From: Candidatus Oxydemutatoraceae bacterium
Lineage (GTDB): Bacteria; Pseudomonadota; Gammaproteobacteria; Poriferisulfidales; Oxydemutatoraceae
Direction: 5' to 3'
DNA length: 64,000 bases
Assembly (NCBI GenBank): GCA_965219575.1
Contig: OZ244779.1
Coordinates: 2,305,098 to 2,369,097, forward strand
The position numbers and the translations under genes were made by a program. The notes beneath the pieces are model-generated. The model had not been told where the DNA came from, did not search any database, and worked only from the letters and a program-made list of their open reading frames with translations. Below are positions 22,608 to 26,468 of the stretch, in pieces (position 1 is the first letter of the stretch; each line of letters opens with the position of its first letter).

Positions 22608-22931
22608 TTATTCGTAAGTCGGCATGCTAGGGTCTATATCTTTAGCCCACGCATCGATGCCACCTTTGAGGTTGATTACTTTTTTGAATCCATGTTTCTC
22701 CATATACAATCCTGCCGCACGACTACGTATGCCGTGATGACAAATGACGACTATTTCGGCATCTCGATTTAATTTACCTATCTGCTCCGGCAGCTCCGAC
22801 ATCGGTATCAACTCGGAATCGGGCAAATGCACGATATCGTATTCCCACTGCTCGCGTACATCTATCAATACGGGCGGTTTATTTGCTTCGCCGATATAAG
22901 TTTTCAGTTCTTTAGGATATAGTTCGTTCAT
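22608..22931 (-). CDS. Single-domain rhodanese-like sulfurtransferase
   Basis: LIDVREQWE, CHHGIRS and NLKGGIDAW...DP.MP.Y motifs. Confidence 0.92.
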   Translation of the reverse strand: MNELYPKELKTYIGEANKPPVLIDVREQWEYDIVHLPDSELIPMSELPEQIGKLNRDAEIVVICHHGIRSRAAGLYMEKHGFKKVINLKGGIDAWAKDIDPSMPTYE

Positions 22932-23005
22932 AAATTAAAAAGTATATTTTAACCATAAATTAATAAATCGATACGATGTTTATTCAACCGCAGTGTAAGC
23001 CACAA

Positions 23006-23053
23006 ATAGAACCGCCGAGTGAAACCGCCGAGTGAACCGGTAGGTCAATCGGC
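23006..23053 (+). repeat. Family C palindromic repeat with an internal duplication
   Basis: atagaaccgccgagtgaaaccgccgagtgaaccggtaggtcaatcggc. Related copies near 8663, 9036, 26470 and 32983 (reverse). Confidence 0.8.
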
Positions 23054-23195
23054 GTCACGCTCTACAAAATATAAACATGGGGCTGATGAAAAAGTATCCA
23101 CGAACCGTAGGGGCGGACTAGCATGATGCCTTATTAAAAATCAAGTCATTTTATTCATTTTTTATCTCCGTTTTATATTTTTCCTGAGTATCGAT

Positions 23196-24182
23196 TTAGG
23201 ACGCAGATGCGCAACAATAATTCGGGTCAAACGGCTTCCTGTATCTGAGTATCCCGTAAATAATACGTGCCAGCTTATGGGCGCAAGCAACAATAATCTG
23301 CTTTTTAGTTAACTCCGGACGCCGCCGACTTAATTGGTCGGCAAAGGCACGGATGATTGGGTTATGAACCCGTGCCGAGAGTGCCGCCATAAACAGCAGG
23401 GTGCGCAGTTCGGCATCGCCCATTTTAGAGATATGCGCCTTCGCCTCGTAGTTGCCGGACTGCCGGTGCCTTGGGTTGAGACCGACATAGACTGCGAATT
23501 GCTCTGCGTTATCAAATGTCTTATCATTGAAAACAGCACACAGGGCAATCGCTGTCTGAGTGCCGATGCCGGTAATGGAACACAGCAACTGCTCAAGCTC
23601 TGCGAGTTGCTCGTCTTGAGCGATAATTTGCTCCATTTCGGCATCCTGCTTAGCAATCTGTTTGTCAAAGTATCTCAGGTTCTCAGCTGCTCGTTTTTTT
23701 TGCCTTGCATCGCATAAGGTTTTCATACAATTACTTAACCCGGTATGATCTTTGACTAATTGCCTGCGCACTTTTCGTGCATCTCTCAAGGCGAGTGCAG
23801 TCGGCGACGGCATTTGCCAATCTTTACCGTCAACAGCGAATGCGAACAGTGCGATGAGCCGCGCATCATCGCGATCGGTTTTATTGTGCATACCAAGCGA
23901 TTGGCGGAAGCTGGCAACCTGCGCCGGTTTGACAATCCTAATCGGATGTTGCGCCAGATAGCCGGCTTTGCACAGGGCGAACTCAAAACCGCCGGTGGCT
24001 TCAACACAGATGCGACAGTGCGGTGCGCAGTGTTTGCTAGCCCAAGCTAACAGCTGCTTAATGCCTTTAGCATCATTGCTAAATTGTGCCTCGGCAAAAC
24101 TATTATCGGTGAATAATAGAGCGGCCTCTAAAGTGTCTTTAGAGACATCCACGCCGATTATGGCAGGGTGTTTGTTTTCCAT
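23196..24182 (-). CDS. IS110 family DEDD recombinase/transposase
   Basis: GVDVSKD, VEATG and KTDRDDA (DEDD); SITGIG..TA, GLNP.HRQSG (catalytic Ser) and ISK.G...LR..L.MAA, HKLARI. ATG 24182 has a GGAGG RBS; the track starts at 24197. Confidence 0.96.
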   Translation of the reverse strand: MENKHPAIIGVDVSKDTLEAALLFTDNSFAEAQFSNDAKGIKQLLAWASKHCAPHCRICVEATGGFEFALCKAGYLAQHPIRIVKPAQVASFRQSLGMHNKTDRDDARLIALFAFAVDGKDWQMPSPTALALRDARKVRRQLVKDHTGLSNCMKTLCDARQKKRAAENLRYFDKQIAKQDAEMEQIIAQDEQLAELEQLLCSITGIGTQTAIALCAVFNDKTFDNAEQFAVYVGLNPRHRQSGNYEAKAHISKMGDAELRTLLFMAALSARVHNPIIRAFADQLSRRRPELTKKQIIVACAHKLARIIYGILRYRKPFDPNYCCASAS

Positions 24183-24234
24183 AATAATATCCTCCATTAT
24201 GGTTGTTCAGTGAATAAAATACTCGGTAGCCAGT

Positions 24235-24436
24235 TCAGGAAAGTATGACTACGCCGCCCACACAGGTAAATACGAGATCTAAAGTCTCAAGCTGCCTTCC
24301 GAGCTCTATAGTCATAGCGCCGGAGGAGTGCTTTTCATGCTAACAGGCTTTAATGCCTCGTCCGTCCTGCGGCGTGTCTCCTCCGACTTCCTAGGTACTG
24401 CAACTACCTAAGCATTTATCTTATATAAATAAGCTA
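24235..24436 (-). ncRNA. Predicted IS110 bridge RNA (5' hairpin, target-binding loop, donor-binding loop)
   Basis: Stems CGGAGGAG/CTCCTCCG and TATGACTA/TAGTCATA enclose guides GGACGGAC + TAGCATG (target GGGCGGA-CA-TGCTA) and AAGGCAGC + TACCTG (donor AAGGCAT-CA-GGTA). RNA ends are approximate. Confidence 0.85.
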
Positions 24437-24442
24437 GGGTTT

Positions 24443-24448
24443 AATATA
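24443..24448 (-). promoter_or_regulatory. -10 box (TATATT) of the IS110 circle-junction promoter; its -35 (TTGATT) is at 23139-23144
   Basis: Joining the element ends through one CA core gives TTGATT-tttaataaggcatcagg-TATATT, a spacer of exactly 17 bp. Confidence 0.8.
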
Positions 24449-24450
24449 CC

Positions 24451-24540
24451 TGTCCGCCCGTAGCGCGTTGGTCGGCACGATTTATACATTCATTCATCCA
24501 ATTTATGGAAACCAAAACCATACGGCGCAAGCGGTTGGGT
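24451..24540. repeat. Right half of the interrupted REP plus conserved REP-spacer module
   Basis: gcacgatttatacattcattcatccaatttatggaaaccaaaaccatacggcgcaagcggtt is the reverse complement of 17646-17707 and is similar to 8840-8895. Confidence 0.85.
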
Positions 24541-24596
24541 TTGCCCTCATAGATTGAAATGTTTAAGCCTATATCTTGCACATAAACCGGCATTAG

Positions 24597-26468
<1,872 letters not shown>

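Follow-up and report, generated by a model that had tools for sequence, protein, structure and literature searches.

A CA-core IS110-group insertion sequence with a predicted IS621-type bridge RNA aimed at a REP-like host palindrome

The insertion sequence, its palindrome and its copies

The window (the whole stretch of DNA that was analysed, 64,000 nucleotides from a Candidatus Oxydemutatoraceae bacterium) was found to contain an IS110-group insertion sequence on its minus strand. The element consisted of a recombinase gene between a long left and a short right non-coding end, and the only terminal repeat was a short subterminal ATA/TAT. According to the available part of the source, the IS110 group is marked by a long left end, a short right end and a subterminal repeat of only 2–3 bp, with no long terminal inverted repeats, and an ATA/TAT signal has been described in IS110 donors (PMC11208160). 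The features of the locus are given in Table 1. When the minus strand was read directly, all of the coordinates and motifs of the original prediction were present.

Table 1. Features of the insertion sequence and its target (window positions)
Feature	Position	Strand	Basis or remark
IS110-group insertion sequence, 1325 bp between two CA cores	23126..24450	minus	junction reading, 7 same-ended copies in the genome
CA core, left copy (crossover dinucleotide)	24451..24452	minus	same in 25/25 tabulated elements
CA core, right copy	23124..23125	minus	junction reading
Left junction: flank CGGGCGGA, CA, element start GGTATATT	24460-24453, 24452-24451, from 24450	minus	
Right junction: element end AATAAGGCAT, CA, flank TGCTAGTCCGCCCCTAC	23135-23126, 23125-23124, from 23123	minus	
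Left target CGGGCGGA (left palindrome arm, REP-like repeat)	24453..24460	minus	
Right target	23107..23123	minus	TGCTA of the loop at 23123-23119, GTCCGCCC of the right arm at 23118-23111, followed by CTAC
Left non-coding end, 268 nt, encoding the predicted bridge RNA	24183..24450	minus	folds, alignment
Right non-coding end, 70 nt	23126..23195	minus	terminates in left donor AAGGCAT (23132-23126)
ATA of the short subterminal inverted repeat	23134-23132	minus	right end
TAT, right half of the same repeat	24448-24446	minus	left end, inside the -10 box
Recombinase gene (328 aa, start at second ATG)	23196..24182	minus	PF01548 + PF02371; IS621 transposase 8wt6 alignment
-10 box TATATT of the predicted circle-junction promoter	24443..24448	minus	invariant in 25/25 elements
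-35 box TTGATT, right end	23139..23144	minus	17 nt from the -10 box solely after circularisation
5' stem-loop of the bridge RNA	24390..24412 (hairpin 24410-24391)	minus	folds
Target-binding loop module	24319..24387	minus	outer stem 24387-24378 / 24328-24319, inner hairpin 24358-24345
Stem of loop 1, bounds of the original prediction	24385-24378 / 24328-24321	minus	
Donor-binding loop module	24244..24316	minus	outer stem 24316-24308 / 24252-24244, hairpin 24289-24273
Stem of loop 2, bounds of the original prediction	24316-24309 / 24251-24244	minus	
Left target guide GGACGGACG	24359..24367	minus	same sense as left target + core; would pair with the bottom strand
Left target guide, 8-nt form of the original prediction, GGACGGAC	24367-24360	minus	
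Right target guide	24334..24342	minus	TAGCATG 24342-24336, then handshake dinucleotide AA 24335-24334
Left donor guide AAGGCAGCT	24290..24298	minus	pairs with AAGGCAT-CA
Left donor guide, 8-nt form of the original prediction, AAGGCAGC	24298-24291	minus	
Right donor guide	24261..24268	minus	TACCTG 24268-24263, then handshake dinucleotide TG 24262-24261

The recombinase protein matched PF01548 (residues 14–160, E 3.4e-21) and PF02371 (residues 203–285, E 1.8e-22), each above its cut-off. The IS621 transposase (PDB 8wt6) matched the protein at E 3.2e-44, and in this alignment the residues D12, E61, D103, D106 and S242 were aligned with D11, E60, D102, D105 and S241 of IS621, respectively, the catalytic roles of which are described in PMC11208158. 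The second ATG was taken as the start because a stop comes directly after the first ATG (24197) in the second subfamily of the element. The closest relatives of the recombinase outside the clade were at most 37% identical. The scan of genome contigs gave only four loci, all in one 'candidatus Porisulfidus' MAG (G018), and the metagenome scan gave only distant relatives of 28–36% identity.

CA was the sole dinucleotide common to both junctions of the window element, and the proposed CA core was borne out by the presence of CA at both junctions in all seven copies of the genome and in all 25 tabulated elements. The insertion point was the junction between the left arm and the loop of the palindrome, where C is the last arm base and A the first loop base. 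Excision of the element with one core, which had been predicted to restore the host repeat, gave a palindrome of 22 nt with 8-bp arms and a 6-nt loop, and the same site was found empty, in exact form, at 34 further places in the genome. With at most one mismatch per 8-bp arm, 295 copies of the palindrome were found in 2.37 Mb. The arm GGGCGGAC was present in 207 of the 242 canonically oriented palindromes, and the loop allele TGCTA in 38 unoccupied ones. Only 28 of the 295 palindromes lay wholly within an ORF of at least 150 aa, though such ORFs made up 86% of the genome, which is a crude ORF proxy for extragenic location used in place of annotation. The RAYT (Y1 transposase) profile PF01797 had no match in this genome (98.9% complete), the control being positive in 6 of the 14 named genomes, and the repeat is therefore termed REP-like. 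The identification of the repeat as a REP was thus upheld for its GC-rich composition, its hundreds of copies and its extragenic location but not for an associated RAYT gene.

Seven intact copies were found in the genome, four at 98–100% and three at 81–82% identity, all with open frames and all inserted at CA in the same REP-like palindrome. Over 1374 nt, the window copy and the copy at C1:1429115-1430488 showed 100% identity, and the flanks of these two copies diverged outside a repeat unit of about 90 nt around the palindrome. All seven copies were on the same contig strand. A replication-linked orientation was considered and rejected, as the seven minus-strand copies were located on both sides of the extremes of the cumulative GC skew (minimum near 2.33 Mb, maximum near 1.5 Mb). 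The circle junction, joining 24450 back to 23126, did not occur in the assembled contigs of four sequencing runs. Contig joints from 23119/23123 to 24451 did occur, but with sides of just 21–28 nt they are indistinguishable from other empty palindromes of the genome and so give no evidence on excision or an empty allele. Among the sequencing runs listed as containing the stretch, none is recorded as RNA. The empty site was also sought in the orthologous thiC upstream region of the sister genome G018, which was rearranged, with another repeat and a different neighbour.

The predicted bridge RNA and its guides

The minimum-free-energy fold of 24198-24450(-) contained both of the stem-enclosed loops (z = -2.47; equally good folds in 3 of 200 shuffles). 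[quoted passage not shown] The scaffold columns of the RNA were 94% identical across elements whose recombinases were just 57–70% identical, and the variable columns of the alignment were clustered in the guide stretches. Only one of the 52 predicted pairs showed a compensatory change within the clade; with the scaffold near-invariant there, structural covariation rests on a model-fitted alignment with distant sequences. The covariance model of the clade RNA matched 11 of 80 distant IS110 loci (28–36% protein identity), and all 11 matches were on the coding strand and ended 7–56 nt ahead of the start of the protein match. When 10 of these 11 loci were added, 93.4% of the cells of the alignment paired and 40 of the 44 pairs changed on both sides, including all eight pairs of the 5' stem-loop; none of 500 shuffles matched this alignment and slid controls paired at 38–43%, figures to be read with the bias of a model-fitted alignment toward the structure. 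No matching RNA family was found in Rfam 15 over 22900-24700 at E values up to 1.

The right guides of the window copy were fully paired. The right target guide paired at 7/7 Watson–Crick positions as the exact reverse complement of core plus loop (CATGCTA), and the right donor guide paired at 6/6 as the exact reverse complement of CAGGTA at the element start. The left target guide showed seven Watson–Crick pairs, one G.T wobble and one A.C mismatch over nine positions, and the left donor guide paired at 7/9, with mismatches at left-donor position 7 and core position 2. Both core bases were paired by the right guides, whereas the left guides paired the first core base and showed a wobble or mismatch at the second. 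The 7/8 matches proposed for the left guides were present but are weaker when core position 2 is counted, where the target guide has the G.T wobble and the donor guide is unpaired. Among the 25 elements, 23 had no Watson–Crick pair between the left guides and the second core position, and 23 had mismatches of the left donor guide both at core position 2 and at donor position 7. The A.C mismatch at position 3 of the left target guide was present in all seven copies of the genome, and an arm that fully matches this guide was found in just one of the 242 canonically oriented palindromes. The right guides had been called naturally long; their lengths of 7 and 6 nt were confirmed but the wording was overstated, since right guides of 4–7 nt are reported across IS110 orthologues in the available part of Durrant 2024 (PMC11208160).

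The matches were compared with 20,000 mononucleotide shuffles of the non-coding end minus its first 12 nt, in which any order or position was accepted. Single guide matches were found in 1312, 355, 1768 and 1076 of the shuffles (1.8–8.8%), at least three jointly in nine, and all four in none. A handshake rule, in which the base after a right guide pairs with the non-cognate and not the cognate substrate at position 7, has been described (PMC11208158). In the window element, the right target guide is followed first by A, which is complementary to the T at donor position 7 but not to the A at target position 7. The right donor guide is followed first by U, which is complementary to the A at target position 7 but not to the T at donor position 7. 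At the second handshake positions the rule was kept inconsistently across lineages.

In 25 circle junctions built in silico, the -35 box was TTGATT in 22 and TTGACT in three, and the spacing of 17 nt and the TATATT box were kept in all 25. In the integrated state, the hexamer at the -35 place was unrelated, and no promoter-like site was found upstream of the RNA. In the proposed cycle, the element would excise as a circle, and the joining of its ends would build a sigma-70 promoter with the -35 box of the right end and the -10 box of the left end. The products of this promoter would be a bridge RNA about 190 nt long and probably also the mRNA of the recombinase. [quoted passage not shown] The DEDD/serine recombinase would then swap strands at the common CA dinucleotide, leading to insertion at the junction of left arm and loop in a single orientation. 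Transcription, circle formation and catalysis of the window element are here predicted from its sequence.

A candidate orphan 'half bridge RNA' was observed 24 kb ahead of the window, in a single syntenic location, with orthologues in two sister genomes. It would consist of a promoter-bearing 5' stem-loop and the scaffold of the target-binding loop, with neither a donor loop nor a recombinase gene. In the search for targets of its guide-like stretch, 9–12-mers were about as frequent as expected by chance. Two RNA molecules supply the two loops of a synaptic complex in IS621, and the orphan could for this reason act in trans on resident recombinases. If so, it may be a decoy that damps transposition or a half-guide that retargets it.

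Guide covariation and alternative explanations

The guide table comprised 25 full elements from four genomes of one genus, out of 38 protein matches. Seven full-length G017 copies and one G018 fragment, none of which was assigned a locus, were left out, as were five fragmentary or broken G018 copies (L050, L054, L056, L058 and L060). For three G018 rows (L040, L047 and L044), the right target guide was read by hand from alignments. The distant metagenome loci were used in the RNA model, the guide tables being restricted to elements with defined ends.

The right target guide was fully Watson–Crick paired in 19 of the 25 elements, with one G.U wobble in three and one mismatch in three, and its four alleles followed the alleles of the target loop. 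The variable pair of the right donor guide was kept in all 25 elements, as C:G in 17 and U:A in eight. In the second-subfamily copies d2 (C1:2071209-2072582) and d3 (C1:883758-885120), the guide was TTGCATG instead of TAGCATG and the target CATGCAA instead of CATGCTA, and in their right donor guide a T for C was matched by an A for G in the left end. Where the palindrome arm changed from GGGCGGA to GGGAGGG, the left target guide tracked one position in all lineages and a second position in one lineage. The left donor was invariant across the tabulated elements, and its guide therefore yields no covariation test. Covariation in homologues, the check that the original prediction had set for its guides, was accordingly found in the right target and right donor guides and in part in the left target guide.

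The third second-subfamily copy, d1 (C1:1384812-1386189), was found to be a chimera. Its first 200 nt, which hold the RNA, were 100% first-subfamily, whereas nucleotides 201–1300 were 94–100% second-subfamily per 100-nt window, with 81% in the short last window. This copy was inserted in the target allele of the first subfamily. The site that it occupies follows its own RNA and not its own protein.

We consider the window element to be an intact, recently active IS110-group insertion sequence that would work like IS621, with a probability of roughly 0.88. The strongest of the alternatives, which we regard as possible but improbable, also holds a bridge-RNA element, in which the hairpin structure of the palindrome weighs as much as the pairing, a gate of sequence plus structure as in ISPpu10. 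The left arm would in that case be read largely as a stem-loop, and the RNA would read mainly the loop and the core. The left target guides were imperfect in every lineage, with A.C mismatches and with just five Watson–Crick pairs of nine in the most numerous sister lineage (12 tabulated elements; 17 protein matches in its genome). In this lineage, the five pairs were joined by one wobble in the 10 rows with the ordinary palindrome, and two other rows, behind a duplicated left-end prefix, differed. With such sparse pairing on the left side, pairing there cannot account for all of target choice. The structural reading is further favoured by the 7-nt right target guide, which spans exactly the core and the loop, and by the position of every insertion, where arm and loop meet in a GC-rich hairpin of 8 bp. 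It is also favoured by the target stem-loop of ISPpu10, which acts as a second specificity determinant with wobble tolerated at the left interface, as given in the available part of 10.64898/2026.03.19.712850. However, the geometry is unlike that described for ISPpu10, where the stem-loop lies 5' of the left target, whereas the crossover here is inside the palindrome, and at one or two positions the left guide still tracks the change of arm from genome to genome.

It is very unlikely that the copies are inactive relics whose number reflects past activity or duplicated host segments. The shared contig strand of the seven copies would fit such an origin, but two of them are identical throughout with flanks that diverge past the repeat unit, all seven frames are open with the catalytic residues kept, the guide changes are compensated, and a recombinant copy sits in the target predicted from its RNA. 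That the guide-like matches are chance or target-derived sequence without a role has next to no probability. The single matches are short and each recurs in shuffles, but the four jointly never do. Compensated changes occur in two guides across four genomes and both subfamilies, the logic of the strands and the placement of the loops match those of IS621, and the variable RNA columns are concentrated in the guide stretches of a scaffold otherwise 94% identical.

The reading as a working bridge-RNA element makes the genus a natural experiment on bridge-RNA programming, in which single-base guide changes are matched by changes in target or donor. With G.U wobbles, a single guide allele could recognise two alleles of the repeat, and the host has about 240 compatible palindromes on which the element might land. 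Matched and mismatched guide/target pairs are ready-made for testing. A more speculative proposal, which we hold as doubtful, is that the genus keeps a half bridge RNA acting in trans, that its sub-lineages have been re-aimed at palindrome alleles by single-base guide changes, and that the RNA module has been swapped between recombinases about 68% identical.

Comparison with known systems

The assignment to the IS110 group held on all points that can be tested on sequence, as did the CA core, the REP-like target and the placement of an IS621-type bridge RNA in the left end. IS621 of Escherichia coli (PDB 8wt6) shares with the window element the two protein domains, the five catalytic residues and a long left end. 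In both, this end encodes an RNA in which a 5' stem-loop is accompanied by one loop for target binding and one for donor binding. Left guides are complementary to the bottom strand and right guides to the top strand in both elements, a handshake base follows each right guide, an ATA/TAT short inverted repeat surrounds the donor, a promoter forms at the circle junction (here in silico) and a REP is the target. IS621 has a CT core, whereas the core here is CA, and its wild-type right target guide forms 4 bp (extendable to 7), whereas 7 nt are native here. The IS621 protein is a distant relative of the window recombinase (E 3.2e-44). Unlike IS621, the second core position has no Watson–Crick pair with the left guides in 23 of 25 elements, and the crossover lies at the arm/loop junction of a palindrome. 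ISCro4/IS622 of Citrobacter rodentium (PDB 9t56) is the second solved relative of the recombinase (E 3.8e-41); it recognises 14 bases per substrate and has handshake guides, but differs in its CT core and belongs to another clade.

ISPpu10 of Pseudomonas putida, as described in the available part of 10.64898/2026.03.19.712850, is likewise an IS110 element; its left end holds a bridge RNA that targets a REP, and it has a circle-junction promoter, tolerance of non-canonical pairs at the left target interface and a hairpin-forming target. It differs in its CT core and in a stem-loop 5' of the left target, not around the crossover, and it has been tested experimentally, whereas the window element is known here from sequence alone. 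Natural re-direction, with target-matching stretches that differ within a conserved RNA scaffold, was reported for ISEc11 and ISXne4 (seekRNA) in the available text of PMC11187229. Those elements are of the IS1111 group, in which the RNA lies downstream of the gene, and most of the target was replaced between them, whereas here single-base steps separate the alleles of one repeat and a single genome carries both guide forms. In P. putida, the IS110-family element ISPpu9 is located in REPs, and further copies of its ssr9 RNA lie at other places of the genome, its RNA being downstream of the transposase gene, in the part of PMC12288879 available; the extra copies may be a possible parallel to the orphan RNA.

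In our literature search, no paper was found to join a bridge RNA with a CA core; the catalogue of thousands of elements in PMC11208160, of which a part was available, may list this clade or core, and the core was not mentioned in 10.1101/2025.10.25.684509. REP targeting (IS621, and ISPpu10 with a CT core), right guides of 4–7 nt and natural re-aiming have already been published, and the window element therefore joins a known class and is not a new kind of system. The picture of how the IS110/IS621 class works is unchanged. The CA core is the main distinction of the element, which adds a natural CA-core system to a field in which the characterised tools use CT and, if active, would widen the set of core sequences addressable by bridge recombinases.

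Junctions, recombinase and target palindrome

The minus strand of 22900-24700 was read, and the junctions and motifs of the original prediction, an IS110 element with a bridge RNA aimed at a REP repeat, were all found where they had been placed. CA was the sole sequence common to the left and right junctions, and removal of the element with one CA restored a palindrome of 22 nt (arms of 8 bp, loop of 6 nt), of which 34 exact occurrences were found elsewhere in the own genome. The donor (the joined element ends) contained ATA and TAT on either side, a short inverted repeat known around IS110 donors (PMC11208160). The element lies ~150 nt upstream of thiC (24603-26468; PF01964, E 1.1e-186), and a rhodanese gene (22608-22931) was present on the opposite side. 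A search of the stretch that separates the element from thiC (24451-24602) against Rfam at E up to 1 gave neither a TPP riboswitch nor any other family.

Features of the element and of the second-subfamily copies (C1, own-genome contig)
Feature	Sequence	Position	Strand	Remark
Left flank	CGGGCGGA	24460-24453	minus	junction reading
Left core	CA	24452-24451	minus	junction reading
Element start	GGTATATT	from 24450	minus	junction reading
Element end	AATAAGGCAT	23135-23126	minus	junction reading
Right core, then right flank	CA, then TGCTAGTCCGCCCCTAC	CA 23125-23124	minus	junction reading
Left target guide	GGACGGACG	24367-24359	minus	loop 1; same sense as left target and core
Right target guide	TAGCATG	24342-24336	minus	loop 1; reverse complement of core and palindrome loop
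Left donor guide	AAGGCAGCT	24298-24290	minus	loop 2; same sense as right tip of element and core
Right donor guide	TACCTG	24268-24263	minus	loop 2; reverse complement of core and left tip
d1		C1:1384812-1386189	minus	second subfamily; locus L052
d2		C1:2071209-2072582	minus	second subfamily
d3		C1:883758-885120	minus	second subfamily

The element contained a single long frame (23196-24197, minus) with domains PF01548 and PF02371. The second ATG (24182) is the likely start of a predicted product of 328 aa, since it is preceded by GGAGGA and the second subfamily has a stop directly after the first ATG. The closest solved structure was the IS621 transposase 8wt6 (E 3.2e-44), followed by ISCro4 9t56 (E 3.8e-41). 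Residues D12, E61, D103, D106 and S242 aligned to the identical D11, E60, D102, D105 and S241, the catalytic residues of IS621 (PMC11208158); with these conserved, both domains and an open frame, the recombinase appears intact, as had been claimed.

The own genome contained 295 palindromes (at most one mismatch per arm), and in 242 of them the AT.... loop orientation placed CA at the arm/loop junction. The loop alleles were ATGTTA (59), ATGCAA (45), ATGCTA (38), ATGCCA (37), ATATAA (32), ATACAA (17) and others (14). Only 28 of the 295 were inside ORFs of at least 150 aa, though such ORFs make up 86% of the genome. The predicted REP target was therefore borne out as a many-copy, mostly extragenic palindrome at the insertion sites, but a RAYT gene was not found in the genome, and the repeat is for this reason termed REP-like. 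The palindrome was also found to lie in the middle of a longer repeat, conserved among copies for ~60-85 nt to the left and ~40 nt to the right; its flanks are at 24461-24545 and 23060-23106 in the window and recur in sister genomes.

Predicted bridge RNA, guides and their covariation

The predicted fold of the 253 nt from the element start to the first ATG (z = -2.47) comprised a small hairpin, the 5' stem-loop and a pair of long stems, each long stem surrounding an internal loop with a hairpin at its centre; it thus contained the two stem-enclosed loops and the 5' stem-loop that had been proposed. No matching Rfam family was found for this RNA. In IS621 the left guides pair with the bottom strand and the right guides with the top strand, each including the core (PMC11208160), and the four guides of the element follow the same logic. 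The guide matches were reached singly in 1312, 355, 1768 and 1076 of 20,000 shuffles of the non-coding end, and jointly in none of 20,000. The published handshake rule for the bases after the right guides (PMC11208158) was obeyed in both loops: the A after the right target guide is complementary to T7 of the donor but not to A7 of the target, and the U after the right donor guide is complementary to A7 of the target but not to T7 of the donor. The second handshake positions followed the rule only inconsistently.

The own genome (one contig, 2.37 Mb) contained seven full copies, four of 98-100% identity (first subfamily) and three of 81-82% (second subfamily). All seven were inserted at the CA of the same palindrome with open frames, and the second-subfamily recombinase frame stopped five codons earlier than that of the first. 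Left-end alignment showed the right target guide TTGCATG in d2 and d3 versus TAGCATG in the remaining copies, and their right flank was CATGCAA rather than CATGCTA. In the same two copies the right donor guide was changed from C to T and the own left tip from G to A, so that among own-genome homologues the guide changes were matched in both target and donor. The first 200 nt of d1 (bridge RNA) were 100% identical to the first subfamily, whereas identity to the second was 94-100% across nucleotides 201-1300 (100-nt windows) and 81% in the short last window. d1 is a chimeric element, and it was inserted in CATGCTA, the target of its own RNA and not of its protein's kin. One first-subfamily copy was in CATGTTA, where the guide could pair through a G.T wobble. 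By the loop-allele counts, perfectly matching free right-guide sites number 38 for the first and 45 for the second subfamily. An arm fully matching the left target guide was present in only 1 of 242 palindromes, and an A.C mismatch is hence the normal state for this guide. All seven copies were on the contig minus strand, yet the oriented palindromes were 127 plus and 115 minus; the shared strand is not explained by replication direction, since copies are found to either side of the GC-skew extremes.

The protein search limited the clade to one genus, with matches in four of the family's 19 genomes and, at the level of the order, in four of 53, own genome counted. A set of 5.8 billion proteins contained 19 clusters at least 49% identical, followed by a drop to at most 37%. 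Guides were tabulated for 25 full elements of four genomes from 38 protein matches, leaving out seven full-length G017 copies, one G018 fragment and five fragmentary or broken G018 copies (L050, L054, L056, L058, L060). The right target guide alleles TAGCATG, TTGCATG, TAACATG and TGGTATG were paired with the loops CATGCTA, CATGCAA, CATGTTA and CATATCA/CATGCCA, respectively; 19 of 25 elements matched perfectly, three with one wobble and three with one mismatch. TGGTATG (G018 elements L040, L047 and L044) met its two loop alleles with one G.U wobble each and may be a natural degenerate guide. The variable position of the right donor guide was paired in 25/25 elements (17 C:G, 8 U:A). The left donor was invariant in all 25, and its guide mismatched donor position 7 in 23 and matched in two; this position is reported to tolerate mismatches in IS621 (PMC11208160). 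Palindrome arms were GGGAGGGC in the sister genomes versus GGGCGGAC in the own genome, and the left target guide tracked this change, with one position altered accordingly in every lineage and a second one in a single lineage. Within the sister lineage with the most elements, only 5 of the 9 guide positions were Watson-Crick. The expected covariation of guides with target and donor was thus found for both right guides, in part for the left target guide, and the left donor gave no variation. Scaffold columns were 94% identical versus recombinases down to 57-70%, and variable RNA columns gathered in the guide stretches.

In L045 (G017) and L042 (G016), left-end prefixes of ~52 and ~88 nt were duplicated ahead of a complete copy, with both joints at CA within the RNA gene and a normal palindrome at the right junction. 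In both cases the arrangement resembles what off-target recombination into a resident copy, with a later deletion, would leave behind.

Predicted circle junctions and relatives of the RNA

Circle junctions were assembled in silico by script for 25 elements, and all contained TATATT preceded, at a spacing of exactly 17 nt, by TTGATT (22) or TTGACT (3). With the element integrated, an unrelated hexamer occupied the -35 place, and scanning the region upstream of the RNA gave no promoter-like site. The predicted promoter matches the junction promoters already published for IS621 (PMC11208160) and ISPpu10 (10.64898/2026.03.19.712850). Among the listed sequencing runs with this stretch, none is recorded as RNA. 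Sequence contigs of four runs contained no circle junction, and no empty allele could be recognised in them unambiguously. By analogy with IS621 and ISPpu10, we infer that the element would be transcribed, form circles and be catalytically active.

Within the clade the stems were nearly constant, with compensatory change at 1 of 52 predicted pairs. A covariance model of 171 positions and 44 pairs, built from 10 clade sequences, was searched against 80 distant metagenome IS110 loci of 28-36% protein identity and matched 11 (E 1e-4 to 0.2), all on the coding strand and ending 7-56 nt ahead of the protein match. When 10 distant and 6 clade sequences were aligned, 93.4% of cells paired, with both-sided changes at 40 of 44 pairs; this pairing was reached by 0/500 shuffles and slid controls gave 38-43%, in an alignment that is model-fitted and favours structure.

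An orphan RNA, a relative of the bridge RNA, was present outside the window at C1:2280574-2280715 (+) (L186:1501-1642; 43.5 bits with model R1). It contained only the 5' stem-loop and target-binding-loop scaffold, with no donor loop, element terminus or nearby recombinase gene, and a consensus TATAAT 7 nt before it. Orthologues in two sister genomes (33.6 bits) kept the -10 unchanged, and in their outer stem an A-U pair was replaced by U-A, a compensatory change; the loops had diverged, and with one of the two sister genomes the downstream flank was shared. No genomic target stood out for its guide-like stretch. In the sister genome G015 no close recombinase match was found at E <=1e-40, and eight RNA-model matches of 31-133 bits (L190, L194, L198, L201, L205, L208, L211, L214) had flanks other than the palindrome. 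L214, upstream of the G015 thiC, is a mini-element whose left end (5' stem-loop, target loop) is fused to the right end, with neither donor loop nor gene; its junction dinucleotides differ (TA and CA), and its left flank is identical over 11/11 nt to the 5' part of the mini-element's own target loop.

Comparison with known bridge-RNA systems

Bridge-RNA elements aimed at REPs were reported for IS621 (PMC11208160) and ISPpu10 (10.64898/2026.03.19.712850), the latter also with wobble tolerance at the left interface, and natural re-direction of a related RNA is in print (PMC11187229). The long right guides of the original prediction kept their lengths of 7 and 6 nt, which fall within the 4-7 nt already published (PMC11208160). 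Judged from sequence, the element is set apart by its natural CA core, by a predicted crossover at the palindrome arm/loop junction, by left guides that would have no Watson-Crick pair at core position 2, and by an unusually clear natural series of single-base guide changes, with a chimera, in one genome. No mention of CA cores was found in the main texts of the bridge-RNA papers searched, as distinct from the supplementary element catalogues. We consider it highly probable (about 0.88) that this is a functional IS621-type element, and it belongs to that known class rather than to a separate kind of system.
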